DNA from: Candidatus Woesearchaeota archaeon
GTDB lineage: Archaea > Nanobdellota > Nanobdellia > Woesearchaeales > GCA-2686295
Assembly: GCA_016784125.1 (NCBI GenBank)
Contig: JADHVI010000003.1
Span: 7,241 to 71,240, forward strand
DNA length: 64,000 nt
Reading direction: 5' to 3'
A program made the position numbers and the translations under genes. Positions 1 to 58,560 of this stretch are shown piece by piece (position 1 is the first letter of the stretch; each line of letters starts with the position of its first letter). Below the pieces are notes generated by a model, which had not been told where the DNA came from, ran no database searches, and saw nothing but the letters and a program-made list of their open reading frames with translations.

Positions 1-212
1 TTTACAAGGCAAAGTCTGATGTTATCAAAGCAGTTTCCAATTTTTGTTATGTTTATGACAAACCACAAAGATATATGGCTGCAGGAGAATTCTTGGCGAA
101 CGCTATTTACTCTATGGAAAAACTCAGAGGGTATTATACTTCTACGCATGATAGGATTTCTTTAAGTCATCTAAGAGCTGGTTTAGAAGGATTGATTCTC
201 TCTTTGGCTTAA
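1..212 (+). CDS. 3' end of an upstream gene (partial, reading frame 3, 69 codons, stop TAA 210-212); product unknown
   Basis: Open frame from window edge to TAA with no internal stops; overlaps the stop of the convergent minus-strand gene by 4 nt. Confidence 0.35.
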   Translation, partial: YKAKSDVIKAVSNFCYVYDKPQRYMAAGEFLANAIYSMEKLRGYYTSTHDRISLSHLRAGLEGLILSLA

Positions 213-808: not shown

Positions 809-809
809 T

Positions 810-1703: not shown

Positions 1704-1864
1704 GGCATTCCAATAGTTGTTTTATTATATAAATATTTCGTTAGTATATAATTATATATCTATATATAAGTTATTAGGATAAATTATATAATTTTATTTC
1801 TGGAGATACATATTGTTTTTCCGAAATTGATGAAACATATTTGGGAAATCCGGAGGTAAATCAA

Positions 1865-2326
1865 ATGGATAAAAAAGATATAAAATTTTTGACGCACTTA
1901 AGAAACAATGCAAGGGAAACATTAACTATGATAAGCAAGAAAACAGGTATTCCGATATCAACGCTTTATGATAGGTTGAAAGTACACGAACAAAGTTTAA
2001 TCACGAAGCACACAGCTTTGATAGATTTTGCAAAGCTTGGATATCTTTGCAGAGCTCACATAGCCGTTAAGGTAACCATAGATGAGCGAGAAGTAATAAA
2101 AGAGTATCTTATGAAGCAGAACTGCGTGAACTCATTGTACAAGATTAACAATGGCTATGACTATCTTATTGAAGGGGTATTTGTGCATGTAAAGGAGATG
2201 GAAGACTTCTTAGAAAGATTTGAACAGAAATTCAAAGTTTTAGAAAAGAATGTACATTATATCATAGAAGATGTTAAAAGAGAAAGTTTCATGACGGATG
2301 TTAATGCTGTTTTGTCCAATGTATGA
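1865..2326 (+). CDS. Lrp/AsnC family transcriptional regulator
   Basis: MDKKDIKFLTHLRNNARETLTMISKKTGIPISTLYDRLK is a classic Lrp HTH; C-terminal RAM-like domain; GGAGG RBS 8 nt upstream of ATG 1865 (ORF-track start at 1841 is a TTG). Confidence 0.7.
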   Translation: MDKKDIKFLTHLRNNARETLTMISKKTGIPISTLYDRLKVHEQSLITKHTALIDFAKLGYLCRAHIAVKVTIDEREVIKEYLMKQNCVNSLYKINNGYDYLIEGVFVHVKEMEDFLERFEQKFKVLEKNVHYIIEDVKRESFMTDVNAVLSNV

Positions 2327-3059
2327 CTCTTTTTTCAATCAAAGAAGCTACTTTGTTCAAAGCATATCCGAATATTCCTGTGATAATAATTAATGCATAC
2401 ATTTTTGGAATCTCATATGCGAGATGAGCATTGATGATTGCGTTGCCCAATCCATTGACGGATCCAATGAACATCTCAGTAACAATTATTAGAATAATGC
2501 AAAGTGAAATTGCAATTCTTATGCCTGAAAAAATGTGTGGCAATGAGCCATAGAAAATGATGTTCTTGAAAAAGTATGGTTTTGGAATGTTGTAAACTTT
2601 TGCCATGTTAAAATATGATTTGTTGAGATGTCGAACTCCATAGGATGTATTTACGAGTATAATTGTGGTAGTTAGCCATGCAGCCAAAGCAATTTTTGCA
2701 GTGTCGCCTATGCCAAAAAACAGCATTGTTAGGGGAAAAAGTGCAGTCACAGGTATGGATCTGAGAAAGTCAATGATGAATTCTAGTGAATCATAGAGTT
2801 TTTTGAAATATCCAATAGCTAATCCTGCTGGAATACCAATAACTAGACTTATGGCAATTCCAATTAACACTCTGTAAAATGTTAACCCCATATCTGACAA
2901 TGTTTCTTGTAGGATAATAATTCTAAAAAATTCTGTTCCAACCAACAATGGATTTGGAAACATCAATGGATTGAAAACTTTGCAGTAATAGATGAGTGTT
3001 CCAACTAAAAAAAACAGTCCTGGAATTAGTACATATCTAATTACTCTTTTATAATTCAT
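2301..3059 (-). CDS. ABC transporter permease (NitT/TauT sulfonate/nitrate/taurine family)
   Basis: Six-TM BPD-transporter topology with an EAA-like loop; overlaps the ATPase gene by 4 nt (operon). Confidence 0.75.
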   Translation of the reverse strand: MNYKRVIRYVLIPGLFFLVGTLIYYCKVFNPLMFPNPLLVGTEFFRIIILQETLSDMGLTFYRVLIGIAISLVIGIPAGLAIGYFKKLYDSLEFIIDFLRSIPVTALFPLTMLFFGIGDTAKIALAAWLTTTIILVNTSYGVRHLNKSYFNMAKVYNIPKPYFFKNIIFYGSLPHIFSGIRIAISLCIILIIVTEMFIGSVNGLGNAIINAHLAYEIPKMYALIIITGIFGYALNKVASLIEKRVIHWTKQH

Positions 3060-3769
3060 AGTACGCGTCCTCTTTTAATTGTGTGCAGAACCTCCCGGTG
3101 GTATTTATTGAAATGAGGCAATGTTCCTTTGCTTCTGGGATTGTCAATCTTAATGATGTTCAATATTTTGGCGGGTCTTTCACTTAAGATGATTATTCTA
3201 TCAGACATCATTACTGCATCCTCAATATTATGAGATATCATGATTGTAGTGGGTCTTTTTTCCTTCCACATCTCTAGGAGATATTTCAGAACATTTGTTT
3301 TCATATAATGATCTAGCGACGAAAATGGTTCATCCAATAGGAACAGTTCGGAGTCATAGACAAAAGCTCTTGAAATAGCTAACAACTGCTTCATGCCACC
3401 ACTTAGTTCATAAGGGTAATTCTTCCTGAACTTCCACAAATCAACCTTTTGAAGAATTGTTTTTACTTTCTTAGAACTAATTTTTTTACCTAGAGAAGTG
3501 TTTTCTAAGACAGTTTTCCAAGGAAGCATTGAGTCATCAGAGTTTTGGAAAATAAAGCTCTTCCTAATGTTTTCCTTGGAATACTTGATATGACCTAGGT
3601 AGTGGTCATCTAAACCTGATAATATTTTCAAAAGAGTGGTTTTGCCACAACCATTCGGGCCTATGATTGAAATGAATTCACCTTTCTTAATGGAAAGGTT
3701 TATTCCTTTCAAAACAGCGTTTTTTGAGAATCTCTTTGAAAGATTCTTTACCTCTATCATTTTCACCAC
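3056..3769 (-). CDS. ABC transporter ATP-binding protein
   Basis: Walker A GPNGCGKTT, ABC signature LSGGMKQ, Walker B LFLLDEPFSSLD. Confidence 0.85.
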   Translation of the reverse strand: MVKMIEVKNLSKRFSKNAVLKGINLSIKKGEFISIIGPNGCGKTTLLKILSGLDDHYLGHIKYSKENIRKSFIFQNSDDSMLPWKTVLENTSLGKKISSKKVKTILQKVDLWKFRKNYPYELSGGMKQLLAISRAFVYDSELFLLDEPFSSLDHYMKTNVLKYLLEMWKEKRPTTIMISHNIEDAVMMSDRIIILSERPAKILNIIKIDNPRSKGTLPHFNKYHREVLHTIKRGRVL

Positions 3770-3773
3770 TCAT

Positions 3774-4757
3774 TTATATCAATAATCCTTCAACTTCAAC
3801 TGATTCGCTGAGAAACTCCTCTGCATATAGTTTATCTGCTAGTTCTTGCACTTTGTCGGAATCGATCTTATCTGAACGAAAATATTTGCAAACTGGCAGT
3901 CTTGACTCTAGTTCGTCATCTGCAGGTGTGAATTCAGAGTAATACTCTCGAGCTTCATCATGGTTGCTGTTAATGAAGTCTATGGCTTTGTTTACTGCAT
4001 TGATGATTTTCTGAGCTGTTTCTGGATTATCATCAATAAATTTTGTCGACATGACACTCGTTTCCCATAGCATGTCTTCCATGAAGTAGTTTCCAATTGG
4101 ACTGTCAACCAGTACTATTCCAATTCCTTTTGCTTCTGCTAGGCTGACAAGCGGTTCCATAACAAATACTGCGTCTGCACTGCCTGATGCTAGAACATTT
4201 ATTTGTTCTGATGGGTTGGTTTGTATGATATCTACTTTTCCTGTTAGTCCCTCTTTTTCGAGCATTATATTCATCCACCTTACTCCTGTTGAACCTGGAA
4301 ATGAGGAAATTGTTTTGCCTTCCAGATCTTGAATGTTCTCTATACCTGAATCTATACCTACAATCAATGCATCAAAATCCTTACTAAGCATTCCTTGACT
4401 GAATATTTTTAGGAGGCCAGGTGTTTTTGTTTCAATTATCATAGGAATCAACACATTTACTCCTCCAACTCCCGCATCTAGATTTCCATTTATGACTGCT
4501 TCCACGAGCTGATTTGTTGATTGGAACGGTATAAGTTTTGCATCCAATCCTTCTTCTACGAAGAAACCTTCTGCTTCTGCTACATATGCTGGCAAGTATA
4601 GTAAATGCTCTCTATATCCTATATTTACATTTTCTAAGGCTTTTGCAGTAACTTGTCCTGTTACAGAGTTGTTCTCATTGTCCATCCAAAACAAACCTAT
4701 GCTGGCAACTGCCAGTAATATAACAGTTATGCCAATGATTAAACTAATTTTTTTCAT
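3774..4757 (-). CDS. ABC transporter substrate-binding protein (NMT1/SsuA-like) with N-terminal signal anchor
   Basis: N-terminal hydrophobic helix MKKISLIIGITVILLAVASIGLF; periplasmic-binding-protein-like fold; first gene of the three-gene transporter operon. Confidence 0.65.
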   Translation of the reverse strand: MKKISLIIGITVILLAVASIGLFWMDNENNSVTGQVTAKALENVNIGYREHLLYLPAYVAEAEGFFVEEGLDAKLIPFQSTNQLVEAVINGNLDAGVGGVNVLIPMIIETKTPGLLKIFSQGMLSKDFDALIVGIDSGIENIQDLEGKTISSFPGSTGVRWMNIMLEKEGLTGKVDIIQTNPSEQINVLASGSADAVFVMEPLVSLAEAKGIGIVLVDSPIGNYFMEDMLWETSVMSTKFIDDNPETAQKIINAVNKAIDFINSNHDEAREYYSEFTPADDELESRLPVCKYFRSDKIDSDKVQELADKLYAEEFLSESVEVEGLLI

Positions 4758-4865
4758 ATCACATCACCAACTGGTGACAAAACAATATTTTATATTAAGT
4801 CTTGTTATAATTATATATTATAACAATACGTAAATTTTAAATAGTTCTTTAGTTTAACTAAAGGC

Positions 4866-5597
4866 ATGGACCTCTCGATACTATCAAAAATAGGCTTAAC
4901 GAATAACGAAGTAAAGGTATATCTAAATCTGTTAAAATTGGGTTCTATTCCTGCAGGGGTATTAATCAAGAAGGTTGAATTGCATAGAACATGCGTATAT
5001 GATACTCTAGAACGATTAATTGAGAAAGGAATTATTTCCTACGTTATTATTTCCAACGTTAAATACTTTGAAGCAGTCAATCCTGCTCAGCTTTTGAATT
5101 ATTTAGATCACAAAAAAGACGAGATTGACGACTATAAGAAAGAAGTTGAAAAAATATTGCCCGAGCTAGAAGTTAAGAGGAAATTATCTAAAGAAAAGCA
5201 AGAAGCCAGCATATTCAAAGGCAAAAAAGGTTTGAAATCAATATTTCAAGACACTCTTCGAGCTGGAAAGACAATGTATGTTTTTGGTGCTCAAGGAAAG
5301 TTTAGGGATATATTTCCAATTTATTATCACTTTTTTCACAGAAATAGGGATTTCAAGATGAACATTATTTACACAGAAGATGTTCGAAGCAAACAAAGAG
5401 AAAAAGAATTAAAATTAATAGAGCAAAGATTTATCCCAAATGAATTTGATTCTCCTGCAACTACTTGGATTTATGACGATAAAGTGGCAATTGTCGTTTG
5501 GGAAGATCAACCAATCGCAACTCTAATTAGAAGTGAACAAGTAGCAAAAGCGTACAAGAATAATTTTGACTTACTATGGAATATTGCTAAGAAATAA
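4866..5597 (+). CDS. TrmB-family transcriptional regulator
   Basis: N-terminus LGLTNNEVKVYLNLLKLGSIPAGVLIKKVELHRTCVYDTLERLIEKGII matches the TrmB wHTH; C-terminal effector-like domain. Confidence 0.55.
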   Translation: MDLSILSKIGLTNNEVKVYLNLLKLGSIPAGVLIKKVELHRTCVYDTLERLIEKGIISYVIISNVKYFEAVNPAQLLNYLDHKKDEIDDYKKEVEKILPELEVKRKLSKEKQEASIFKGKKGLKSIFQDTLRAGKTMYVFGAQGKFRDIFPIYYHFFHRNRDFKMNIIYTEDVRSKQREKELKLIEQRFIPNEFDSPATTWIYDDKVAIVVWEDQPIATLIRSEQVAKAYKNNFDLLWNIAKK

Positions 5598-5645
5598 TTT
5601 CTTTTTCTAAAAAAATTGTATTCTCATCTCTTAAAAAAAAACAAT

Positions 5646-5694
5646 GGCCTTCACGTTTGGGGGATCATTGGGGGTGATGCAACACGGTGAAGGC
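5646..5694. terminator. GC-rich hairpin between convergent genes (9-bp stem GGCCTTCAC/GTGAAGGCC, ~31-nt loop with two TTGGGGG repeats)
   Basis: Perfect inverted repeat seen directly; sits between the stop of the TrmB-like gene and the stop of ftsZ; GC-rich in an AT-rich background. Confidence 0.3.
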
Positions 5695-5747
5695 CAAGAA
5701 AGAAGTATGACCTAAAAAAAATTATTAAAATTATTTAGTAAGGTTGT

Positions 5748-6821
5748 TTACCTTACTATTTCGATTCCTAGTTCATCAGACATTGCTTGTTGTCTTGCAA
5801 CTGATTCTTTGCCTGTCAACTTGCCTAGTATCCAAGGGCTCTTCACTCCTGTGATAATTGTCATCACTGTAATCTTACCCTTCATGTTTTCGAGCACTCT
5901 GGCTCCCCAGATAACGTTGGCATCATCATCCATACTCTCTGTTACTAGCTCTCCTACTCTGCTAATCTCATCTAGAGTCATGTCTGGTCCGCCTGATACG
6001 TGTATAATTGCGCCTGTTGCGCCTTCATAGCTAATATCTAGCAATGGGTTACTAAGAGCTCCTTTTACTGCTTCTTCTACTTTGTTGTTTGTGTCACTTG
6101 CTCCTACTCCTATTGCTGCTACTCCGCCATCAGTCATGATGGTTTTAACATCTGCGTAGTCCAGGTTCACTAGGGATGGTATTGCGATGGTTTCGACAAT
6201 TCCCTTAATCATTGTCGCTATTAGTTCGTTCGCTACTGCAAATGCTTGCTGCACTGGTAAGTTTCCTGCGATTTGCACTAATCTGTTGTTGTCTATAACT
6301 ATCACTGTATCTGATTGTTGTCTCAGTTGTTGAAGTCCAAACTCTGCTTTGTCAACTCTGGCCCTTTCAATGTTGAAAGGCATTGTCACTGTTCCGATCA
6401 CTATCGCTCCTGCGTCTTTGGCAACATTTGCAATCACTGGCGAAGCCCCTGTTCCGGTACCGCCACCCATGCCTGCGCAAACAAACACCATGTCGGAACC
6501 CTTCAAGGCTTCCTTTACTTCTTGCAAACTCTCTTGTGCAGCTTCCGCACCTCTTTCCGGGAATCCTCCGCATCCTAGTCCTTTAGTAACATCTCTCCCT
6601 ATCAAGAACTTTCTGTCCGCTTCAATAACATTAAGATGTTGCTGATCTGTATTGCAACCTAGTATCTCGGCTCCTTTGATACCTTTCTTATAGAGCCAAT
6701 TAATCATATTGTTTCCGGCTCCGCCTACACCCATAACTTTGATGTTAGCTTGTCCAACATCATATTCATAGTTCATTGTTGTTTTCTCTTGTTTCACTGC
6801 ATTGTCTACTACAAAGTCCAT
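5748..6821 (-). CDS. ftsZ: cell division protein FtsZ
   Basis: Tubulin/FtsZ signature GGGTGTGASPVIA; N-terminal GAGNNMINWLYKKGIKGAEILGCNTD; GAGGGGG RBS upstream. Confidence 0.92.
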   Translation of the reverse strand: MDFVVDNAVKQEKTTMNYEYDVGQANIKVMGVGGAGNNMINWLYKKGIKGAEILGCNTDQQHLNVIEADRKFLIGRDVTKGLGCGGFPERGAEAAQESLQEVKEALKGSDMVFVCAGMGGGTGTGASPVIANVAKDAGAIVIGTVTMPFNIERARVDKAEFGLQQLRQQSDTVIVIDNNRLVQIAGNLPVQQAFAVANELIATMIKGIVETIAIPSLVNLDYADVKTIMTDGGVAAIGVGASDTNNKVEEAVKGALSNPLLDISYEGATGAIIHVSGGPDMTLDEISRVGELVTESMDDDANVIWGARVLENMKGKITVMTIITGVKSPWILGKLTGKESVARQQAMSDELGIEIVR

Positions 6822-7086
6822 TTTCTGTTACCCCCTCTTCGGTTTTTTTCCATTTTAGTTTTTTGTATTTATTTTATATGCTTGGATATATACTTTGGAG
6901 TATCAAAAAATTTATATCTAACCCTAGGTATAATCACTACTAGAAGTTAGAATTTTTTTGCCAAACGATTCAAACTTATTCGCCAAAATCAGTTTGAATG
7001 TGTCCTCGCCGGAAAACCCAATTAATATATAGTTCTCCATACTGGTATTTAAATATTTCCAATCTCTAGACTATACTTTAGAAACT

Positions 7087-7620
7087 CTACTTTTGAAACA
7101 ACACTGTTCTGCGGCCCGGAAATAGCCCCATTTCAGACATCTTATTTAACTGATCTGGTTCTAATGTTAAATCTATAATGGTGAATCCGTAACGTTCTTT
7201 GATATCTATTACTGAGCGTTTTATTTGTTCTACTGGGATGTTGTGTCCTATCAAAAGAACGTTTGCTTTTTCCTTCTCTTCCCTGCCATGCAAGATGGCT
7301 TGCTCGACCTCTGTTATAGTCGTCATTTGTTCTACGAAATCGTTTAAAGCTGACTTCTTTTGTGCTACTAAATCTTGTAAGAATTCGGTGTTCTTTGTTT
7401 TGTTTAAATGGTATAGTTTAAACTTCTTAATCTTGTTTTCTTTTAGTATTTCAAGATCTTTTAATTTATTGATTATGCGGAAACAAGTAGCTACTGGGGT
7501 TTTAGTCTTTTTGGCGATTTCACGGATGTAGAATTCTTCTTCCGGGTTGTCAAAAAAGAAGTTCATAACTCTGAGCTTCTTCTCATCGAACAGTTTCCCC
7601 AGCAGTTCTATTGTTTCCAT
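7087..7620 (-). CDS. putative winged-helix transcriptional regulator
   Basis: N-terminus FYIREIAKKTKTPVATCFRIINKLKDLEIL is HTH-like; C-terminal domain unknown. Confidence 0.35.
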   Translation of the reverse strand: METIELLGKLFDEKKLRVMNFFFDNPEEEFYIREIAKKTKTPVATCFRIINKLKDLEILKENKIKKFKLYHLNKTKNTEFLQDLVAQKKSALNDFVEQMTTITEVEQAILHGREEKEKANVLLIGHNIPVEQIKRSVIDIKERYGFTIIDLTLEPDQLNKMSEMGLFPGRRTVLFQK

Positions 7621-7654
7621 CTAGCCTCTATAAAACACATCTAATATTTAAAGC

Positions 7655-7689
7655 TTTTCATTTTTGGAACGTTGTTTCATTTTTGGAAC
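7655..7689. promoter_or_regulatory. two direct copies of TTTCATTTTTGGAAC, 19 bp centre-to-centre, in a divergent intergenic region
   Basis: Exact 15-nt direct repeat at 7656-7670 and 7675-7689, between the regulator gene (minus) and the 7748 gene (plus); a TATA-like TTTAAATATTAG lies on the minus strand at 7641-7652. Confidence 0.3.
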
Positions 7690-7747
7690 ACTTGTTTTTT
7701 TGAGAAAAGTTGAATAGATTTATATTATTGCTAAACTTACTGTTATT

Positions 7748-8281
7748 ATGTCATGGGAAACAATCAATAGACCAGGTCAAACAGGTAGTAATAAACAAGT
7801 GTTGTTTGCTCAATATGATGCAAAATTTGGTAATAATAATTGGAGGTTGGCTTGGACTTGGGGAAATCAATTCTTAGATTTCTTAGGGGTTTGTCAGATC
7901 TATGAAGATGGATATTATCATGATTCTTTTGAAAGAGAAGCTGTATGGCAAGAACTCTTAATGACTGCATCCGAAGTATGGGATATTCAAGAAAATGATG
8001 TACAATCAGGATTAGATTATACTATTCAAACTGGCCCTGCTAATCATTTGCAAGATATTGCTGTAAGAAATGTAATACAAAGACGAGGATGGGAGTTTCA
8101 AGGAGATGAATTGATTAGAATAAGAAAACATGAAGACTACTGGGGAGCACTCATGAGTCCTGGATTAATCCCTTTTCATCAACCAGATTTAATAGTCCAA
8201 CCATTGCTGGAAGGTTGGTGGAAACCACATACCATCGAAGATTTCTATCAAAGTAATAAAGTATTGCAAGCTAGAAAGTGA
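7748..8281 (+). CDS. hypothetical Trp-rich protein
   Basis: 177-aa ORF with clean ATG; 11 Trp residues; no recognisable motif. Confidence 0.45.
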   Translation: MSWETINRPGQTGSNKQVLFAQYDAKFGNNNWRLAWTWGNQFLDFLGVCQIYEDGYYHDSFEREAVWQELLMTASEVWDIQENDVQSGLDYTIQTGPANHLQDIAVRNVIQRRGWEFQGDELIRIRKHEDYWGALMSPGLIPFHQPDLIVQPLLEGWWKPHTIEDFYQSNKVLQARK

Positions 8282-8885
8282 GTCCTAAAGCAGAAAGATC
8301 TTGTTTTAACTGAGAAAGAGACTGGTAATGAATTGCTTGAAAACCTAGTTCTTTTGCTGCTTCAACGTTTTCTATTTGATTATCAATGTATATACTTTCT
8401 TCTGCTTTGATGTCAGCATTTTTTAGAACGAATTCATATATATCTTTGTTTGGCTTAGCCATACCAAGTAATGCAGAACAATAAATTTTATCAAATAATT
8501 TATCTAGCTTGAACTTATCAAGTTTAAGCTTTATGCCGCTCTTTGTTTCATTTGCTATTGCCAATAAAGGATATTGCTTTTTTAGATTCTTAATGAAGCT
8601 ATAGACCTCTTGATCCATAATTATCTTAGAGTCATATAAAGCTTTGACTTCTGCTGGAGTAGCGTCGGTTGTGATGTGTTCGTAGAATTCGTTCCAGAAA
8701 GTATCAATATCAGTCCTACCAAACTTAGCGTCAGGCCAGTATTTAGACCATATCTCTTTTGATTTTTCTCTTGTGATGCCTGCTAATTCGAGAACATCTG
8801 TAAAATCAGCCAGATTATTCAAATAATAAATAACTGCGTCAGAGACGAGAACCTCGCCTAAATCAAATATGATTGTTTTAATCAT
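8271..8885 (-). CDS. HAD-superfamily hydrolase
   Basis: Motif I MIKTIIFDLGEVL (DxG variant of the DxD motif); tandem paralog of the next gene; GGAGG RBS. Confidence 0.65.
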   Translation of the reverse strand: MIKTIIFDLGEVLVSDAVIYYLNNLADFTDVLELAGITREKSKEIWSKYWPDAKFGRTDIDTFWNEFYEHITTDATPAEVKALYDSKIIMDQEVYSFIKNLKKQYPLLAIANETKSGIKLKLDKFKLDKLFDKIYCSALLGMAKPNKDIYEFVLKNADIKAEESIYIDNQIENVEAAKELGFQAIHYQSLSQLKQDLSALGLTF

Positions 8886-8920
8886 AATTTTCCTCCTGAA
8901 AATTATGGTATTCCAAAAAA

Positions 8921-9541
8921 CTATTTTTTGTAATAATCAATCTTAACACCTAATGCTTTCAAGTCTTCTTTAAGTTGTGAAACAGATTTGAAATGTATTC
9001 CTTTAATTCCAAGTGAATTTGCAGCAATAATGTTCTCTTTCATGTCATCTGTGAAAATACATTCTTCATATTTTACATTTAATTCTTCACAAACTATATC
9101 GAAATTCTTTTTTGATGGTTTTAACGAGCCAATATAACAAGAAAATATTTCCTTAGTAAATAAATCTCTAACACCCCATTGCGTAAGTATATTGGTTGAC
9201 ATATTATTAGTGTTTGACAAAAGAACTAATCTATACTCCTTGCTTAGTATTTCTAATAGTTCTTTCATACCGTCAAGTAAGTATGATATATTTAATCCAT
9301 CTTCAACGGTTTTAATGAAAAAAGCAATGTTTTCTTTTGTTATTGGAACTTTGAAAAATTTAAGGAAACTTTCTGCCATTGCCTCGTTAGTTTTCCAATC
9401 ATGTAATTGTATGGATTCTTCATATAGTCTTATGAAATTAGAAGTTTTTTTAATATTAAAATGCTTTCTCAGTGTTGATGATAAACCTATCTTTTTTGAA
9501 CCTAAAGTTCCCCATAAGTCAAATATAATCGCTTTAATCAT
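8921..9541 (-). CDS. HAD-superfamily hydrolase (tandem paralog)
   Basis: Motif I MIKAIIFDLWGTL; C-terminus ...SQLKEDLKALG similar to the paralog; upstream ~65 bp nearly identical to the paralog's upstream region. Confidence 0.65.
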   Translation of the reverse strand: MIKAIIFDLWGTLGSKKIGLSSTLRKHFNIKKTSNFIRLYEESIQLHDWKTNEAMAESFLKFFKVPITKENIAFFIKTVEDGLNISYLLDGMKELLEILSKEYRLVLLSNTNNMSTNILTQWGVRDLFTKEIFSCYIGSLKPSKKNFDIVCEELNVKYEECIFTDDMKENIIAANSLGIKGIHFKSVSQLKEDLKALGVKIDYYKK

Positions 9542-11897: not shown

Positions 11898-12449
11898 ATG
11901 TCTCCTTATGATATTGGCGAGGTCAAAAGTGTTAGAAAGAAACTTGGTTTAACTCAATCAGATCTTGCTAAGAAAGCTAATGTTTCTCAATCGCTCATTG
12001 CGAAGATTGAAAGTGATAAATTAGATCCGACTTATTCTAATGCGGTCAAGATATTTGATGCTTTGGATTCTATGCAGAAGAAAAAGTCTTTGAAAGCCAG
12101 GGACTTCATTCACTCTGGAGTCATCGCTTGTCAAGAAGATGATTTGGTGCGGGCTGTTATTAAAAAGATGAAACGGCACGAAATTAGTCAGTTGCCTGTA
12201 ATAAGAAATGAGGCTATTGTGGGCGTCGTATCTGAAACAAGATTAATTGATTATTTGATAGATAATCCTAATATGGATTTGAAAGTTAAGGTTGTGATGG
12301 GGGATATTCCGCCTATTGTTTCTTTAAATACTGATGAATCAGTTATTTCTAGTTTGCTGAAATATTTTGCGTTAATTATTGTTCAAGATATGGGTAAGCT
12401 TAAAGGTGTTATAACCAGGTCCGATATTCTTAGACGAATATATGGGTAG
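11898..12449 (+). CDS. XRE-type HTH plus tandem CBS-domain regulator
   Basis: LGLTQSDLAKKANVSQSLIAKIESDK is a Cro/C1-type HTH; the C-terminal half has CBS-pair features (IVGVVSETRLIDYL ... GVITRSDILR). Confidence 0.6.
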   Translation: MSPYDIGEVKSVRKKLGLTQSDLAKKANVSQSLIAKIESDKLDPTYSNAVKIFDALDSMQKKKSLKARDFIHSGVIACQEDDLVRAVIKKMKRHEISQLPVIRNEAIVGVVSETRLIDYLIDNPNMDLKVKVVMGDIPPIVSLNTDESVISSLLKYFALIIVQDMGKLKGVITRSDILRRIYG

Positions 12450-13165: not shown

Positions 13166-13649
13166 CTTATTTGTTTTTTTTAGTAAACATAATTGTTCCA
13201 TTTTATTTTTCTCCGTTCATCCTTGGATTGCTAAGTCTACATCCTATCTGTTCCTTAGCTAACAAGCCCCCAAGAATGTCTTGTGTTGCAAATAGTATTA
13301 CCGTTTTTCGTCTTTATAAACTTTTCGGTAAAAAAAACTTTATTTGTATGGACGAGTACCTCTCTACAGTCGAGAAAATATACTAAAAACCACACTAATG
13401 TATATAAGTGTATATTAACTACTAATTAGGTACAATGTGATAATTGTTAAAAAATACGTAAAATAAGCAATATTCTGTAATGTGCATCTCAAGATGCAAA
13501 TAAACAGAGATAAACTATTTCTTAATGGCACTGAGATTATACAATGCAAGAAAACAATGGTTTTCAAATTACTCAAAATATTTTTCTAAGAAAATTGCTT
13601 TTAAAAAATATAATGAGAGCCGCACATAAACTTATAGTCTTAATATATA

Positions 13650-16540
<2,891 letters not shown>

Positions 16541-16723
16541 TTTTATATAATGCAAAGACTGGTTTGTTTATGTGCGGCTTCATTAACATGATATATCACA
16601 ACACACTGTATGTTGTGGAAAGTTCAAAAGCCGGTGCTTTTGAACAAATCTAAGTAAGCATGTCTATGCCATAAGATTAACAGATGTTATCTAATTAATC
16701 TAGTGTGTAAAGTAAATATGAAG

Positions 16724-16797
16724 TGGACTCGTCGGGATTCGAACCCGAAGCCTTCTGGTTGCAAACCAGACGCTCTACCAGGTTGAGCTACGAGCCC
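16724..16797 (-). tRNA. tRNA-Ala (anticodon UGC) in the 16S-23S spacer
   Basis: Reverse complement GGGCUCGUAGCUCAACCUGGUAGAGCGUCUGGUUUGCAACCAGAAGGCUUCGGGUUCGAAUCCCGACGAGUCCA folds as a cloverleaf with anticodon loop UUUGCAA. Confidence 0.85.
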
Positions 16798-16869
16798 GTA
16801 TAAGTCCTATAGTAATGAGTATAAAAGGTAGGAATAAAAGAAACTATAAAATTATTAAATTAATAAAAA

Positions 16870-18334
<1,465 letters not shown>

Positions 18335-48119: not shown

Positions 48120-48881
48120 ATGCCTAATTTTGATTCTATCAAAAACATAGTTGTAGATGAATACTCAACTGAACCTGCGCAAGAAAGATATAGAAAAAAC
48201 ACTCGTGCTGGATTATGGAAATCTGAAACAATTTTGTTTGAGAAATATTTGAAACCAGGATCTTCAGTTCTAGACATTGGTTGTGGTTCAGGAAGAACAA
48301 GTTTTGCGCTTGCAAAAATGGGTTATAAAGTAACTGCCATTGATTTAACACCTGCAATGATTGCATCTGCTAAGCAACTTGGCAAAGAATTTGATATGGA
48401 TTTAGATTTCAGATTAGGTGACGCAACAAACTTAGACTTTGAAAAAGAGAGCTTTGACAACGCAGTATTCTCATTTAATGGATGGGATAATATTCCTGGA
48501 AGGGAAAATAGGTTAAAATCGTTGCAAGAAGTCTACAGAGTTCTAAAACCAGGCGGAGTATATGTCTTAACATCTCATGTTAGAAAGATGGGAAAATATA
48601 CTCCTTTTTGGATAGCGCAGTGGATGAAAATGTATATCTTGAAACCATTTGGATACAAAGTAATGGAAAAAGAATGGGGCGACAGATTCTTCAAACAAGA
48701 ACAATCGGGTTTGAAAATGAAGAATAAACAGTTTGCATGCATACCAAGCTTAAAAGAAATAAAATATCAAATAGCAAAAGCTGGTTTTACACTAGAGTTT
48801 TATGATTATAGAAATAATATTTCAAAAGAGGAACTAACAGCAGGAAACTGTACGTTCTTTATTTGCAAGAAAAATGGGTGA
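48120..48881 (+). CDS. class I SAM-dependent methyltransferase
   Basis: VLDIGCGSGRTSFALAKMGYKVTAIDLTPAMIASAKQ. Confidence 0.7.
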   Translation: MPNFDSIKNIVVDEYSTEPAQERYRKNTRAGLWKSETILFEKYLKPGSSVLDIGCGSGRTSFALAKMGYKVTAIDLTPAMIASAKQLGKEFDMDLDFRLGDATNLDFEKESFDNAVFSFNGWDNIPGRENRLKSLQEVYRVLKPGGVYVLTSHVRKMGKYTPFWIAQWMKMYILKPFGYKVMEKEWGDRFFKQEQSGLKMKNKQFACIPSLKEIKYQIAKAGFTLEFYDYRNNISKEELTAGNCTFFICKKNG

Positions 48882-49845
48882 CTGGGAATCAATATTCAAA
48901 GAGAGGAAAGATATTTTTAGAGAGCCTCAGGAAGATATGAATAAAATCATTGCTCTTTTGAAAAAAGAAAAAGCTAAAAGAGTTCTTGATCTAGGATGCG
49001 GTACAGGAAGACATACAGTTCTATTATCAAAAAACGGATTTGAAGTTTATGCGGCTGATATTTCAGAATCTGGAATAAAGAACGCAAAAAAGTGGTTGAA
49101 AGAAGAAGGTTTGAATGCCAAGTTCAAGATTCAAGATTTTTATAAAAAATTTAACTTTAAAGATGGTTTTTTTGATGCTGTGATATCAACGCAGTCTATT
49201 CATCACAATTATCAAGATAAAGTTCAGTTCTGCATTTCCGAAATCGAAAGAGTTCTCAAACCAGGCGGAATTGCTTTTGTAACTGTTTCAGCCAGCAAAT
49301 ACAAACGCAGAGCTTCTAAATATAAAATTGTAGGTCCCAGAGTTTATGTTCCAATGGATGGGGCTGAAAAAGGACTGCCTCATTTTATTTATACTAAGTC
49401 TTTGTTGAGAAAAGATTTTAAGAATTTTAAAATTATAAGTTTGCATATGGACAAAGGAAAACATTACTGTGTTTTAGGAAGGAAAGGCAATACAACTAAA
49501 TTCCAAGAAAATATCTATGCGAAGCTGAGGAAAGTGCCGAAAGGCAAAGTAACGACTTATGGAGAACTAGCCAAAGCAGTAAAGAGTAAAGCTTATCGCG
49601 CAGTTGGTAGTGCAATGAACAAGAACCCATATGTGTCTGAAAAGCATAGCTTTTCTGAACATGCCAAAAATAAAGAATTTTTGAGCACGCCTCAAGTACC
49701 ATGCCACAGAGTTGTTTGTAGCGATGGAAGTATTGGTGGTTTTGCATCTGGAGTCAAAAAGAAGATTGCAATCTTAGAAAAGGAAGGAGTTCTAGTAAAG
49801 AAGAATAAAATAGTTGATTTTGAAAAGAAACTCTACAAGTTCTAA
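48874..49845 (+). CDS. fusion protein: SAM-dependent methyltransferase + O6-alkylguanine-DNA alkyltransferase (MGMT/Ogt) C-terminal domain
   Basis: N-terminus VLDLGCGTGRHTVLLSKNGFEVYAADIS; C-terminus YAKLRKVPKGKVTTYGELA...NKNPY...VPCHRVV (PCHR active-site Cys) with a ~17-aa insertion before PCHR. Confidence 0.6.
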   Translation: MGDWESIFKERKDIFREPQEDMNKIIALLKKEKAKRVLDLGCGTGRHTVLLSKNGFEVYAADISESGIKNAKKWLKEEGLNAKFKIQDFYKKFNFKDGFFDAVISTQSIHHNYQDKVQFCISEIERVLKPGGIAFVTVSASKYKRRASKYKIVGPRVYVPMDGAEKGLPHFIYTKSLLRKDFKNFKIISLHMDKGKHYCVLGRKGNTTKFQENIYAKLRKVPKGKVTTYGELAKAVKSKAYRAVGSAMNKNPYVSEKHSFSEHAKNKEFLSTPQVPCHRVVCSDGSIGGFASGVKKKIAILEKEGVLVKKNKIVDFEKKLYKF

Positions 49846-50922: not shown

Positions 50923-52665
50923 ATGGGGGTTTGTAGTAAAAAGGAATTGAAGATATTCATCACTTTTTTCTTAATATATGTTATATTCGCGCAGAGTATT
51001 GCTTGGAATGAAAATACTAGGCTAGATCTGACTTTAGCTATTGTAGATGAAGGAACATTTGCAATAGATTCCTACTTTGAAAACACAGGTGACAGAGTTA
51101 CTTTCAATGATCATTATTACACAGATAAAGCTCCAGGAATGTCTTTTTTAGGAATACCATCATATTTTGTCTATAAACAATTTTTTGGACCGCCAACTGT
51201 TGGAGAAGAACTATATGCTCCTTTATCAAAGAGTTTTGCTTCAGCTTTATTTATAGTAATAATATTTACTTCTGCTCTCTTAGGAGCATTGAGTGTAGTT
51301 TTAGTATACAGAGTATCAAATTTTTTCACGAAAAGAAAACTCCACAAAAACTTAATTGTGCTAATATATGGCCTTGGAACACTCATTTTTGTTTACTCAA
51401 GAATCTTCATGTCACATACAGCTGCAGCGTTTTTCTCATTTTTATGTTTCTATTTAATATTAAAAGCAAACCAAGAGAAGAGCAAGAAAAAATATTATTT
51501 TTTATTGGCAGGACTCAGTGGAGGTTTTGGTCTGATAACCGATTACACCGTTCTAATTGTTCTAATCATTTCTTTTTTAATGATATTTCTTGGAACCTCA
51601 AAATACAAGCTTGTTTTCACTTCTAAACTAAAACATTCTGGATTGTTCATTTTAGGATTCATATTAATTTTCTCACTCTTAATCTTTTATAATCAACAAG
51701 TCTTCAACAAGAGCATTGCTTACCCATATTCATATGTAGATTCGTCTGTGTGGACTGATTCGAGCTATGAACTATATGGTGTTACGTGTGAAGGGCTCTC
51801 ACCAGATGACACTTATCGTTGTAAAGCTATAGGAACACAAGATGTAAAACTGTGTGAAGAAATATCAGATTTTAATACTAGAGACAGTTGTTTTTTATCT
51901 CTTGCATTTTCACTAAAAGAGATTGATGTTTGCAACAATATTCTAAATAAAGATAACTCGTATTTTTGCAAATCTAGAGTGAACTACGACAAATCATTCT
52001 GTAACGAAATAGTGGATCAATCTATTAAGAAAGAATGCGTGGGAGAACTGTCAATAATAAAAAAAGTGTCTAATATTTTCTTCCTAAACAAAGAAGATGT
52101 ACCTCTAAAAATGTTTAGATTGTCATTCTTTCCTTATAGAGGATTATTTTTCTATTTTCCAATTTTAATATTTTCAATCATAGGTTTGTTCTTTATGTTC
52201 AAAAAGTACAAGTTTGAATCTTTGGCAATAGCAGGGCTGTTTTTAGTTTTATTGTGGTTTAGTGCATCACTAACTGTTTGGTGGGGTGGTTATGCTTTTG
52301 GTCCACGTCACATGACTCCTCTGATGCCTTTCTTAATGATTCCATTATTATTTTCTCTTAAAAAAATTAAGCTTCGTTACATAATGCCTTTTATAGTAAT
52401 ATCAATATTCTTCTGCGTTTTAAGTTTACAAATTCCAGAAGAAGCAGGTTTAGGTAAAACTGTTGATAATCTTACACCGTTTGGAAATCCTTTATTTGAT
52501 CATTATCTTCCTTCATTCTTGGAATCGGGACCAAGAACTATTTTATTAGAGAAATTATCTGATGTGTTTATGTCTAACATGGGATTTAAAATAGCTATAA
52601 TTTTATCATTATTGGTTTGGCATAAAGAATTGTATCGCTTAATTAGAAAAAAATCTTTTAAGTAG
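50923..52665 (+). CDS. GT-C-fold membrane glycosyltransferase (PMT/ArnT-like) with an inserted Cys-rich extracytoplasmic loop
   Basis: ~12 TM segments; first-loop acidic motif AIVDEG...YYTDKAPGMSFLGIP typical of the GT39/GT83 families; ~120-aa loop with 12 Cys (CEGLSPDDTYRCKA...CEEISDFNTRDSCF...CNNIL...YFCKS...FCNEIV...ECVG). Confidence 0.5.
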   Translation: MGVCSKKELKIFITFFLIYVIFAQSIAWNENTRLDLTLAIVDEGTFAIDSYFENTGDRVTFNDHYYTDKAPGMSFLGIPSYFVYKQFFGPPTVGEELYAPLSKSFASALFIVIIFTSALLGALSVVLVYRVSNFFTKRKLHKNLIVLIYGLGTLIFVYSRIFMSHTAAAFFSFLCFYLILKANQEKSKKKYYFLLAGLSGGFGLITDYTVLIVLIISFLMIFLGTSKYKLVFTSKLKHSGLFILGFILIFSLLIFYNQQVFNKSIAYPYSYVDSSVWTDSSYELYGVTCEGLSPDDTYRCKAIGTQDVKLCEEISDFNTRDSCFLSLAFSLKEIDVCNNILNKDNSYFCKSRVNYDKSFCNEIVDQSIKKECVGELSIIKKVSNIFFLNKEDVPLKMFRLSFFPYRGLFFYFPILIFSIIGLFFMFKKYKFESLAIAGLFLVLLWFSASLTVWWGGYAFGPRHMTPLMPFLMIPLLFSLKKIKLRYIMPFIVISIFFCVLSLQIPEEAGLGKTVDNLTPFGNPLFDHYLPSFLESGPRTILLEKLSDVFMSNMGFKIAIILSLLVWHKELYRLIRKKSFK

Positions 52666-53708: not shown

Positions 53709-54653
53709 ATGAATTATTTTGATAATTTAAGAACTTTGTATAACAATCCAATTGAGATTAAAGGCTTTAAACAACTCAACAAGAAAGGCTTGTTTCCTGA
53801 AGAAGAAATATTGATAAAGAAGCATCTTAAGCCAGGAAAAAAAGTTTTAGTTATTGGCTGTGGTGCCGGAAGAGAATGTTTTGTTCTCGCAGAAATGGGA
53901 TTTGAAGTTGTAGGTGTTGACATATCTAAAGAAATGGTTGCAGCTGCAAAAAAACTTTCTGAGAAGAAAAAACTAAATATCAAATTCTTCGAATCAAATA
54001 TATTGGACTTTGATTACAAGAAAGAATCATTTGATTACGTTTTAATGCTTGAACAAATGTATAATCTTATTCCTTTCAAAAAAAACAGGTTGCTGTTATT
54101 AAAGAAAGTTCGCTTCTTACTTAAGAAGAACGGCTTATTCATTTTCTCAGCATATTCAAAGTTATATTTTCATTTAATTTTTCCTTATTTGTTTGTGAAA
54201 TTTCCGCAAAATTTAATTAGAAATTTATTCTCCAGTAAAGACAAACTTATGCACCTTCAACAGTCTAAATATTCATTTTCAAATCCGAAACCTTTGTCGA
54301 GAATAAAACTCTTAAAACGTTTTTTTGGAAAAGTTTATTATGCCTTAAAATTATTTCTAAGAGAACCTATTTTTTTATTTAAGAATATATACAGATTAAT
54401 TCAAAAAATTATCTTTAAAAAAAGAGCTGTATTGGAACCTGGTGATTTAATTGGAAATCCGAGTCTTTTTTGTAAAAACGAATCTTTGAAAGTAGTTTTT
54501 AAGTATTTCAGTCCAAAACAAATTACAGAGAAAATAGTCGAATCTGATTTTAAATTAGTTAGATATTATTCTAGAGATGAACTCCTAGAAAACAAAAGGT
54601 TTATGGGGAAAATATTTACTGATATAAATTATTATGTTGCAGAGAAATTTTAA
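53709..54653 (+). CDS. class I SAM-dependent methyltransferase
   Basis: VLVIGCGAGRECFVLAEMGFEVVGVDISKEMVAAAKK; first ATG used. Confidence 0.65.
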   Translation: MNYFDNLRTLYNNPIEIKGFKQLNKKGLFPEEEILIKKHLKPGKKVLVIGCGAGRECFVLAEMGFEVVGVDISKEMVAAAKKLSEKKKLNIKFFESNILDFDYKKESFDYVLMLEQMYNLIPFKKNRLLLLKKVRFLLKKNGLFIFSAYSKLYFHLIFPYLFVKFPQNLIRNLFSSKDKLMHLQQSKYSFSNPKPLSRIKLLKRFFGKVYYALKLFLREPIFLFKNIYRLIQKIIFKKRAVLEPGDLIGNPSLFCKNESLKVVFKYFSPKQITEKIVESDFKLVRYYSRDELLENKRFMGKIFTDINYYVAEKF

Positions 54654-54739
54654 CAAGTTTTACAACAGTTGAGCTCGCCAACATTCTTAATAAGTTTAAG
54701 AGTCGGTTTTTCGTATTCAAGAGTTTTCTTCTTCATCAT
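54650..54739 (-). CDS. candidate RiPP precursor peptide (29 aa: MMKKKTLEYEKPTLKLIKNVGELNCCKTC)
   Basis: Unannotated small ORF in the gap between the MTase and the B12-rSAM genes, on the same strand as the PqqD, kinase and NTase genes; Lys-rich leader-like N-terminus and Cys-rich C-terminus; weak RBS (AAGAAA); could be a chance ORF. Confidence 0.35.
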   Translation of the reverse strand: MMKKKTLEYEKPTLKLIKNVGELNCCKTC

Positions 54740-54811
54740 ATTTTTTCTTAATTTTTTTTATTTAAAAACTTTTTGGATATATTTATATATTTCTTCTCGC
54801 AATCCAATCTT

Positions 54812-58143: not shown

Positions 58144-58560
58144 ATGAGACAATTAACTATAAACAGCAACAGTATGCTTCCATTACTGAAAATCAACGAT
58201 CGAGTAGTTGTGAATAACACTAATTCATTTGTAATTGGGGATATACTAGTTTATAAGAAAAACAAATCTTTTGTAGGCCATAGACTAGTTAAAAAAAGTG
58301 AATTAGGTTTTTTTGTTAAAGGAGATAATGATCCTACTGTTGAACTTGTTAGTTCCAATAAAATCCTTGGGAAAATAATTCTAATTAATAATTATAAATT
58401 TAAGAATAATTTCATTGAAAAAATAATTTCTCATTGTTCTTATGTTCAGTCAAAAATCCCTTTCATATTTAACATTAAGAATGATTTGTTAAGAAAAGCC
58501 TTTAAATTTCTAACTAATCCTTTATTATACTTAGCTCACTCTTCAAAGCATTGTTTATAA
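58144..58560 (+). CDS. S24/S26-family (signal-peptidase/LexA-like) peptidase
   Basis: SMLPLLKINDRVVV (Ser nucleophile box), GDILVYKK, VKGDN motifs as in S26 signal peptidases; 138 aa. Confidence 0.45.
   Translation: MRQLTINSNSMLPLLKINDRVVVNNTNSFVIGDILVYKKNKSFVGHRLVKKSELGFFVKGDNDPTVELVSSNKILGKIILINNYKFKNNFIEKIISHCSYVQSKIPFIFNIKNDLLRKAFKFLTNPLLYLAHSSKHCL

Follow-up and report, generated by a model that had tools for sequence, protein, structure and literature searches.

The stretch analysed here, referred to as the window, comprises 64,000 nucleotides of contig JADHVI010000003.1 from Candidatus Woesearchaeota archaeon and has a G+C content of about 32%. It carries, on the minus strand, a small open reading frame (ORF) that lies between a methyltransferase gene (ending at 54653 on the plus strand) and a divergent gene encoding a B12-binding radical S-adenosylmethionine (SAM) enzyme, also on the plus strand. 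The small ORF is on the same strand as the genes encoding a PqqD-family protein, a protein made of a family 2 glycosyltransferase (GT2) and a kinase-like domain, and an NTP_transf_5 protein. The minus-strand translation of positions 54640-54760 reads KKLRKNMMKKKTLEYEKPTLKLIKNVGELNCCKTC, bounded by a stop on each side. The first ATG (54739) leads to a peptide of 29 amino acids (aa) and an alternative one (54736) to a peptide of 28 aa, the length of its homologue described below. The peptide ends with a segment including three Cys and one Thr, and the stop codon (54650-54652) overlaps the stop codon of the methyltransferase gene (54651-54653) on the opposite strand. The original prediction, made from the letters of the sequence, had proposed this ORF as the precursor of a surrounding island resembling those of peptides that ribosomes synthesize and that are modified after translation (RiPPs); the position, strand, neighbours, Cys/Thr tail and stop overlap that it gave all agree with the minus-strand translation, the ORF list and a Pfam scan.

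With 667 ORFs of 20-60 aa in the six frames of the window, a bare ORF of 29 codons is not beyond chance. The exact peptide is missing from about 15 billion predicted proteins despite the presence of the locus on at least 17 contigs, and it is therefore truly unannotated. A search of a protein database with a tandem-duplicated peptide as query retrieved nothing at E ≤ 10, not even the homologue described below, the index being unable to score such short proteins.

The status of the ORF as a gene is therefore established not by its length but by its conservation in a sister cluster, L001. This Joint Genome Institute (JGI) contig bears P0002, a protein 61% identical to the 540-aa GT2/kinase-like fusion of the window and its sole full-length relative in a search of 5.8 billion clustered proteins. 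Directly after the PqqD gene, at positions 11908-11994, L001 encodes a 28-aa homologue of the peptide, MKKEKEKYEKPTMKLIKNIGILNCCGTC, which was called once as a gene, by JGI. As in the window, this gene is convergent with a methyltransferase gene and the two stop codons overlap. The two peptides are 71% identical (E 2.7e-14 in a pairwise screen), a value higher than the 61% of the enzyme. Over the last 22 codons and the stop, 9 codons are identical, 9 differ synonymously and 5 non-synonymously. Over the last 21 codons, the 9 synonymous and 4 non-synonymous differences correspond to a proportion of synonymous differences (pS) of 0.82, with saturated synonymous sites, a proportion of non-synonymous differences (pN) of 0.15 and a pN/pS ratio of 0.19 (Nei-Gojobori), exactly that of the adjacent PqqD gene in the same comparison. 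Neither of the two other sense frames is free of stops in both genomes.

In an all-against-all screen, all ORFs of 15-90 aa from the window and L001 clusters were compared; outside the large genes, no small ORF but this peptide pair is conserved. Its sense frame (71%, E 2.7e-14) is conserved much more strongly than the antisense one (52%, E 3.5e-4). The peptide gene keeps its convergent spot beside the methyltransferase gene, with overlapping stops; the radical SAM gene, and the place of the peptide gene relative to the PqqD gene, differ in L001. The small ORF is thus a real gene under purifying selection. The proposal that it encodes the precursor of the island is supported by this conservation, with synonymous changes prevailing over non-synonymous ones, and by the finding that the island holds no other conserved small ORF. 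A third close orthologue, P0196 on L074, was considered and discarded, its sequence being identical to the C-terminus of the L001 protein.

The peptide carries an N-terminal Y-x-x-P-x-L motif and a variable tail (Table). The pattern Y..P.L is found in 5 of the 667 small ORFs of the window, and the more demanding [KR]x0-3-Y-x-K-P-x-[LIVMF] in a single one, the peptide itself. In lasso peptide leaders, Y-x-x-P-x-L occupies positions -17 to -12 (PMC10368454). More generally, [Y/W]xxPx[L/V/I/F/A] is the site bound by the discrete recognition proteins of lasso pathways and by LppB, the chaperone of the linear polyphosphorylated peptides (LPPs), a family exemplified by the Paenibacillus alginolyticus system LppA/K/B/S/N/D (Popov et al., Nat Commun 2026, PMC13381572). 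By analogy with the function reported in these two papers, Y9-L14 is a putative chaperone-binding motif. The original prediction had instead emphasized a PqqA-type leader (KP...G...E); this likeness was abandoned, the relevant feature being the Y-x-x-P-x-L motif.

The tail is NCC-x-TC in both the window and L001 peptides. Counted from the Tyr (Y), the window peptide has Cys at Y+16, Y+17 and Y+20, Thr at Y+19 and Lys at Y+18, where L001 has Gly. The tail (Y+16 to Y+20) therefore lies at the same distance from the Tyr as the phosphorylated Ser of LPPs (Y+18, PMC13381572) and the first Cys (Y+18) of the bacterial peptides described below. Upstream of the gene, a TATA-like box is present in the window and, as TTTTTAAATG, at the identical distance of 19 nucleotides in L001, though the upstream gene is different. 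Other genes encoding such mini-peptides have TATA-like boxes 20-35 nucleotides upstream. These boxes would fit archaeal leaderless or short-leader transcription, and they are common in A+T-rich DNA.

Table. The precursor peptide gene, its sequence features and the neighbouring genes (positions in the window)
Feature	Position	Strand	Remarks
Precursor peptide gene, including stop	54739..54650	-	MMKKKTLEYEKPTLKLIKNVGELNCCKTC, 29 aa
Codons of Y9-E-K-P-T-L14 (Y-x-x-P-x-L motif)	54698..54715	-	Y, E, K, P and T invariant in L001
Codons of N24-C-C-K-T-C29, putative core/modification site	54653..54670	-	Y+15 to Y+20
TATA-box-like TTTTTAAATA, putative archaeal promoter	54759..54768	-	19 nucleotides upstream of ATG
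NTP_transf_5 'uncharacterised nucleotidyltransferase', 335-339 aa	52639..53658	-	PF14907 4.1e-37
Class I SAM methyltransferase, 314-321 aa	53688..54653	+	Methyltransf_31 2.1e-21
B12-binding radical SAM enzyme, 476 aa	54812..56242	+	Pfam B12-binding and Radical_SAM
PqqD-family peptide chaperone (RiPP recognition element), discrete, 89 aa	56229..56498	-	Pfam PqqD 1.4e-15
GT2/kinase-like fusion, 540 aa	56476..58098	-	GT2 ~1-250; HprK/phosphoenolpyruvate carboxykinase (PEPCK)-fold 'ScmC' domain ~270-540
S24/S26 signal-peptidase-I-like protease, 138 aa, candidate leader peptidase	58144..58560	+	Pfam Peptidase_S24 5e-5

Five partners are common to the window and L001: the PqqD protein, the GT2/kinase-like fusion, the methyltransferase, the NTP_transf_5 protein and the S24/signal-peptidase-like protease. 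The two PqqD proteins are 72% identical. Among NCBIfam families, lasso_PqqD_Bac matches the window PqqD best, with 60.9 bits for a cutoff of 80. Of its solved relatives, TbiB1 comes first (4.7e-11), ahead of two recent lasso/LPP PqqD entries, 9x90 and 9x8z. The match of the window PqqD with chain 9x8z_B, deposited as 'PqqD family protein' and presumably LppB, has an E-value of 7.6e-4.

The GT2 part of the fusion matches Pfam Glycos_transf_2 (5e-18) and the SunS family of NCBIfam (TIGR04195, 2.2e-20, 72.9 bits for a cutoff of 350), and its solved relatives are GmaR (3.9e-33), SunS (1e-16) and a ThuS-like protein; a match to the mycofactocin glycosyltransferase MftF is weak (1.8e-5). GmaR is known for the O-GlcNAcylation of Listeria flagellin, and SunS for the S-glucosylation of a sublancin Cys. 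Since GmaR and SunS are its nearest relatives, the GT2 domain belongs to a clade of protein/peptide glycosyltransferases. About 100 of its top homologues carry tetratricopeptide repeats (TPR) after the GT2 domain, and in the window fusion the kinase-like domain takes their place. This C-terminal domain matches three NCBIfam families, ScmC (1.1e-9), HprK_rel_A (3.2e-6) and HprK_rel_B (8.5e-5), all below their cutoffs, and is annotated as PF27840 ScmC in precomputed Pfam. Its AlphaFold2 model (predicted local distance difference test 88, predicted template modelling score 0.87) retrieves with Foldseek the ATP-dependent PEPCK (2.4e-9, TM ~0.5) and then HprK/P (1.1e-5), two families with a P-loop kinase fold in common. 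The fusion has an intact P-loop, GEKGAGKST, of which the G, K, S and T are kept by its relatives without exception. According to fold and P-loop, this domain is therefore a predicted HprK-like kinase.

The protease also matches signal peptidase I of NCBIfam (5e-5, below the cutoff). Its S10 (SMxP), H46 (HR) and D61 (KGDN) are invariant in 7 cluster-associated homologues, an arrangement of Ser, His and Asp reported for LppS (PMC13381572). In two other clusters, both described below, the S24 domain is found in fusions: N-terminal to NTP_transf_5 in L007 (8787-9989, minus strand) and with a SAM methyltransferase in L075 (4893/5040-6335, plus strand). These fusions link the protease, the nucleotidyltransferase and the methyltransferase in one pathway. 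The NTP_transf_5 protein is conserved in L001, L007, L075, L081, L082 and L048, and the methyltransferase retrieves the L001 protein with an E-value of 1e-127 (phmmer).

The B12-binding radical SAM enzyme, whose gene starts at ATG 54812 according to gene callers or at TTG 54773, had served as the anchor of the original prediction, but it is not a conserved partner. Indeed, the radical SAM protein of L001 is at most distantly related to it, has 326 aa, is encoded at another position and shows 25% identity to the window enzyme over 81 residues. L081 encodes a B12-binding radical SAM enzyme that is 26% identical to that of the window, and L048 encodes another one. This enzyme, rejected as the defining one since it is not conserved in L001, is, judging from sequence comparison, a variable accessory of the cluster.

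The surroundings of the cluster include a gene encoding a PMT_2-type membrane glycosyltransferase (50923-52665, plus strand), which adjoins it. Glycan-synthesis genes are also found at positions 1-9500 and 16600-18700 of L001, 1-8600 of L007, and 1-1756 and 9079-10320 of L081; the families encountered at these loci are PMT_2-type, GT2/GT4, Wzt_C exporters of the ATP-binding cassette (ABC) type, Wzy_C, EpsG and Polysacc_synt. The LPP and paeninodin clusters of Bacilli are likewise associated with glycan genes (Popov et al., PMC13381572). Elsewhere in the window, a plus-strand ORF of 323 aa (48874-49845) combines an N-terminal class I SAM methyltransferase with a C-terminal DNA-binding domain of methylated-DNA-protein-cysteine methyltransferases (PCHRVV). 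Gene callers applied to the identical contig report in this interval only a 76-aa DNA_binding_1 gene. A further methyltransferase is encoded directly upstream (48120-48881). The window also contains a complete archaeal rRNA operon (13644-18333, minus strand; small subunit 16872-18333, large subunit 13644-16547, Rfam) with a tRNA-Ala(TGC) gene at 16723-16797 in the spacer; there, G+C peaks at 0.46-0.48, compared with about 0.32.

Further low-GC clusters were found through the closest standalone relatives of the kinase-like domain. In these clusters, a tiny peptide gene comes after the kinase-like and PqqD genes, in most cases on the other strand. Beside their ScmC-like and PqqD genes, L007, L075, L078/L079, L081, L082 and L048 encode peptides of 25-47 aa with Y-x-K-P-x-(I/V/F); four of these further low-GC clusters encode peptides of 25-30 aa bearing Y-x-K-P-x-(I/V). 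L075 (28% G+C) encodes a separate GT2, the S24-methyltransferase fusion, an NTP_transf_5 protein, an ABC pair and the peptide MKYKKKRIYTKPKIIEIQKIDKLLIGFQI. L078/L079 (30% G+C), a short contig, encodes MPKRDKKLKYSKPKIVEIKKIDKLLLGTRA. L081 (40% G+C) carries another GT2-kinase fusion, NTP_transf_5 and B12-binding radical SAM genes, and the peptide gene for MNRNQKKGMYHKPKVIHLKQIELLEAATKN. L082 (24% G+C) includes GT2, methyltransferase, S24 and NTP_transf_5 genes, an ABC pair and a gene encoding (MILGDLH)MEKYIKPKIELIKKTERLYAATTIN. L007 combines the NTP_transf_5 protein bearing an N-terminal S24 domain with two radical SAM proteins and a 47-aa peptide with YKKPSF, and L048 (48% G+C), annotated 'archaeon', encodes MMADGKRKLRYIKPIVTEFTRQITVARASSSLPAPCQF. 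The ABC pairs of L075 and L082 are of the ABC2/ABC type. In L075, GT2 fragments resembling GmaR/SunS and the N-terminus of the window fusion, e.g. MKNSITACLIVKGDAYLARYLESISNFVDEIIIV... and ...HFGDARNYSISKATKE, are encoded at 4255-4800 (plus strand); this second GT2, between the PqqD and peptide genes, looks like a decaying pseudogene.

The distance from the motif to the end of the peptide is nearly constant. In five of the six low-GC clusters (window, L001, L075, L078 and L081), the peptide extends exactly 15 residues beyond the motif of six residues, so that the C-terminus is at Y+20; it is at Y+21 in L082. The last 5-6 residues, for their part, differ among subfamilies: NCCKTC, LIGFQI, LLGTRA, EAATKN and YAATTIN.

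A word-indexed search with the kinase-like domain alone gave only one match, and an exhaustive HMMER search of 1.84 billion representatives was needed; it retrieved 4,202 relatives, almost all standalone and of about 265-290 aa. Most of the 66 genome loci and 80 metagenome loci gathered through this domain alone have the PqqD gene directly after the kinase-like gene (phmmer detects PqqD in 56 of 74 sequences, window copies included), and many contain small ORFs with the pattern [KR]-x-[YW]-x-x-P-x-[VIL]. Among 123 neighbouring ORFs, a Pfam census counted Radical_SAM (11), SPASM (10), PqqD (6), Peptidase_C25 (5), NTP_transf_5 (3) and Peptidase_S24 (3), and neither a lasso cyclase nor a B2 protease figures among the families matching at least two of these ORFs.

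Acidobacteriota, Chloroflexota, Rokubacteria, Omnitrophota, Patescibacteria and soil metagenomes provide one large group of peptides. In 13 of its 17 genome examples and 26 of its 34 metagenome candidate peptides, Y+18 is the position of the first Cys, and the peptides almost always end in Ser (29 metagenome candidates). An example from soil metagenomes, KKPYTKPSVxSEPIYETLALACGKLPGQGGxCNxAPRRS, is very well conserved beside ScmC-like and PqqD genes. This family occurs among L083-L161 (e.g. L108 8272-8442, L092 8023-8193 and L161 6367-6537) as well as in L008, L012, L019, L022 and L023, and is accompanied by radical SAM/SPASM enzymes and often by Peptidase_C25. In several of its members, an A-x-A preceding the first Cys resembles a signal-peptidase cleavage site. 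No paper on KKPYTKPSV-type peptides was found, and a literature search for 'SynChlorMet' gave 0 matches.

A second bacterial group, from Alphaproteobacteria, has W-x-x-P-x-V leaders; its peptides are probably the phosphorylated lasso peptides that PMC10368454 mentions for Sphingomonadales. Some Alphaproteobacterial and Acidobacteriota loci (L066 14164-14867, minus strand; L055 7023-7458, minus strand; L064 2159-2897, plus strand) have, near the HprK-like/PqqD pair, two or three paralogous genes in tandem for W-x-x-P-x-V precursors ending in Ser; these loci are probably clusters for phosphorylated lasso peptides. In a Rokubacteria metagenome-assembled genome (L009), five tandem small ORFs at 1877-3337 (minus strand), each with PPKVGWKAPAVVGKxVxxVxPxT, lie about 5 kb from the ScmC-like/PqqD pair; they could be a multi-copy array of W-x-x-P precursors or a repeat protein read in pieces.

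It is thus highly probable that the ORF encodes a ribosomally made precursor of 28-29 aa and that it serves an archaeal pathway working like the tailoring module of LPPs and phosphorylated lasso peptides; most likely, the neighbouring set of enzymes modifies this tiny peptide. A leaderless, TATA-driven transcript of the peptide gene itself would probably be translated. The discrete PqqD would bind Y9-E-K-P-T-L14, and the complex would dock on the kinase-like domain and present NCCKTC, 16-20 residues from the Tyr, to the fusion. The HprK-like P-loop domain would phosphorylate a side chain, Thr28 being the favoured candidate, and the GmaR/SunS-like GT2 domain would add a sugar to Thr or Cys. Further groups may be added by the NTP_transf_5 protein, the methyltransferase and, in this genome, the B12-binding radical SAM enzyme. 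Lastly, the signal-peptidase-like Ser/His/Asp protease would cut off the leader, probably near N24/C25. The order of these steps, the modified residues, the cleavage site, the product and the binding by PqqD are all predicted in this scheme. The chaperone site and the active site may be separated by a kind of 'ruler', an idea that stems from the fixed C-terminus at Y+20 and from the presence of acceptor-type residues near Y+18 in LPPs, bacterial relatives, L078, L081 and L048.

Several observations weigh against this interpretation. A mature core of about 5 residues would be unusually small, and at Y+18, the register of the LPP phosphorylation site, the window peptide has Lys and that of L001 Gly instead of Ser. 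Furthermore, LppK did not accept Thr at the phosphorylation site (PMC13381572). As the L075 peptide is devoid of Ser, Thr and Cys in its last 15 residues, no single acceptor chemistry can be shared by all six peptides. No ABC transporter, MsbA-like or other, was detected between 49.8 and 59.3 kb by the Pfam scan; the ABC ATPase homologue nearest to the peptide cluster (3056-3769) is about 50 kb away. The NCBIfam matches of the PqqD protein, the kinase-like domain, the GT2 and the protease are all below curated cutoffs. A profile hidden Markov model and position-specific scoring matrices built from bacterial leaders rank the window peptide only 8th (2.4 bits), behind Lys-rich proteins; such profiles being undiscriminating, the assignment to the family rests on motif, context and length rather than on profile score. 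Lastly, L001 is the only close orthologous cluster found. A strict DNA pattern (Y-[EKQ]-K-P-x-Phi, 10 residues, C-C-x-T-C-stop), valid since it matches both the L001 and window copies, had 0 matches in metagenome contigs, but this collection lacks the contig of L001, so that the null result says little.

A bolder extension of the same scheme is conceivable, although we hold it to be unlikely: the peptides of 25-30 aa would constitute a distinct minimal branch of the HprK-like/PqqD systems in low-GC archaea with small genomes, and possibly in other ultra-small prokaryotes. They would be nearly all leader, with a ruler of about 20 residues from the Tyr placing the last 4-6 residues in the active sites, and the product would be a phospho-, glyco- and methyl-decorated pentapeptide or a primer for a phosphoglycan. 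The latter idea comes from the location of the clusters inside glycan-synthesis loci.

The peptide might also be a scaffold for a small molecule, like PqqA or MftA, with the last residues (CCKTC) reworked and released as a thiol-rich, glycosylated and methylated metabolite or cofactor. The very short peptide, the fixed distance between its C-terminus and the PqqD-binding motif and the weak match of the GT2 to MftF go in this direction, as does the set of PqqD, radical SAM enzyme, protease, GT2 and methyltransferase, which parallels mycofactocin, with MftB, MftC, MftE, MftF and MftM as counterparts. However, cofactor precursors keep an invariant core, whereas the C-terminal residues differ wholly among subfamilies here. 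Furthermore, the two closest clusters do not have a radical SAM enzyme in common, and Pfam and NCBIfam reveal no SPASM enzyme of the MftC/PqqE type in the window cluster. Such a scaffold is thus quite improbable.

Slightly less probable still is a precursor of a glycocin-like S-glycosylated bacteriocin, in which the GT2 would S- or O-glycosylate the Cys/Thr tail and the HprK-like domain would only dock the PqqD-peptide complex. The best family and solved-structure matches of the GT2 are indeed SunS-family S-glycosyltransferases and GmaR, the kinase-like domain stands where its homologues have the TPR part that binds the substrate, and the window peptide ends in Cys like glycocin F, which carries a sugar on its C-terminal Cys. 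The intact and conserved P-loop nevertheless argues for catalysis, L075, L081 and L082 keep a GT2 although their peptides lack Cys, and the SunS score is far below its cutoff. In glycocins, the core is a helix-loop-helix structure of some 40 aa that includes two nested disulfides (PMC9266682), whereas the tail has about 5-6 residues.

Finally, a chance ORF, or a conserved non-coding element (promoter or terminator between convergent and divergent genes) that stays open, could be suggested by the abundance of small ORFs in the window, the silence of gene callers in the at least 17 contigs, the overlap with the 3' end of the methyltransferase gene and the adjoining divergent promoter region, but it is effectively refuted by the all-against-all screen and by selection of the same strength as on PqqD, with the other frames stopped, by a length, motif and C-terminus kept despite rearranged flanking genes, and by analogous peptides in at least five further clusters.

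The preferred interpretation, that of an LPP-like tailoring module acting on the peptide, has several consequences. Very few archaeal ribosomal natural products have been characterized (PMC12144867). The peptide-bearing loci of Acidobacteriota, Chloroflexota, Rokubacteria, Omnitrophota, Patescibacteria, Alphaproteobacteria and archaea suggest that the module made of an HprK-like kinase, PqqD and a Y-x-x-P peptide is much more widespread. The archaeal form is stripped down: its peptide has fewer than 30 aa, and its kinase domain forms one protein with a peptide glycosyltransferase. The context of the gene family is already published; its archaeal occurrence, its broad distribution and the mini-precursors of fixed length are not. 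If the product were a decorated pentapeptide or a phosphoglycan primer, this would represent, in archaea, a chemistry not yet seen for any RiPP. As the peptide is short enough to be synthesized, binding, phosphorylation, glycosylation and cleavage are testable with three or four recombinant proteins. More generally, the peptide gene exemplifies a functional gene overlooked by every gene caller in at least 17 assemblies.

Among known systems, glycocins (sublancin/SunS, glycocin F) share with the window cluster a SunS-related GT2 and Cys residues, including the C-terminal one, as possible acceptors. However, the window lacks TPR, a helix-loop-helix core with two disulfides and a peptidase-containing ABC transporter, and recruitment presumably involves PqqD, which glycocin pathways do not use. 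A glycocin was therefore rejected on the basis of the missing helix-loop-helix core and TPR domain.

The SynChlorMet cassette (NCBIfam TIGR04248-04251), for which no experimental paper was found, resembles the window cluster by its ScmC-family kinase-like domain (TIGR04249), its PqqD gene and a small Y-x-K-P-x-V peptide. In this and related systems, a Cys also lies about 18 residues after the Tyr. The window scores are 38 bits for ScmC (cutoff 125) and 26.9 for ScmD (cutoff 100). SynChlorMet and the bacterial loci differ by radical SAM/SPASM maturases, often a Peptidase_C25, and longer peptides with two Cys ending in Ser. Pfam and NCBIfam detect no SPASM protein in the window cluster, the radical SAM enzyme of which belongs to the B12-binding class, and a SynChlorMet cassette was thus rejected for want of a ScmE/ScmF-type enzyme.

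Phosphorylated lasso peptides (paeninodin, pseudomycoidin, Bsf; PMC9266682, PMC10368454) are closer. Like the window genes, their clusters specify a YxxPxL leader and a discrete B1/PqqD, and their tailoring proteins, an HprK-like kinase and an NTP_transf_5-type 'N' protein, belong to families also encoded in the window. PsmK and PsmN phosphorylate and then glycosylate the lasso peptide; in pseudomycoidin, the kinase phosphorylates the Ser at the C-terminus, and PsmN, a protein of the NTP_transf_5 type, attaches hexoses to this phosphate (PMC9266682). A lasso peptide was rejected for lack of a cyclase and a B2 protease and because so short a core leaves no room for a ring. Indeed, a Pfam scan of the ten flanking ORFs (49.8-59.3 kb) revealed neither a macrolactam synthetase (C) nor a B2 protease, and near the cluster, the ORF list of the 44-64 kb region shows no unassigned ORF large enough for a cyclase. 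Furthermore, lasso cores have at least 14 aa with Asp or Glu at positions 7-9, whereas the window peptide has only 15 residues after the motif, with E22 as the sole acidic one, and lacks an Asp or Glu at core positions 7-9.

The closest likeness is with LPPs, which are made without a cyclase, often from polysaccharide loci, and derive from precursors of 35-200 aa with YxxPxVLxHQxIxFETxxS (PMC13381572). LppK polyphosphorylates Ser3 of the core (Y+18), and LppS cleaves after T(-1), i.e. Y+15, only when LppB presents the precursor; these peptides are reported only from Bacillota, to which the authors regard them as restricted (PMC13381572). The window peptide is archaeal, has 28-29 aa instead of 35-200, and lacks the VLxHQxIxFET consensus, only the Y-E-K-P-T-L part being shared. 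In the window, the kinase-like domain and a GmaR/SunS-like GT2 form a single protein, and a methyltransferase and a B12-binding radical SAM enzyme are added. [quoted passage not shown] On the other side, the window cluster encodes four of five LPP proteins (PqqD, HprK-like domain, signal-peptidase-like protease and NTP_transf_5), lacks a lasso cyclase, specifies a precursor with an N-terminal Y-x-x-P-x-(V/L) motif and a variable C-terminus, and is located among glycosyltransferase/polysaccharide genes. The locus is therefore an archaeal, miniaturized variant of the LPP/phospho-lasso tailoring system, in which the GT2 and kinase-like domains are joined in one protein and the Cys-rich tail of the peptide has 5-6 residues.

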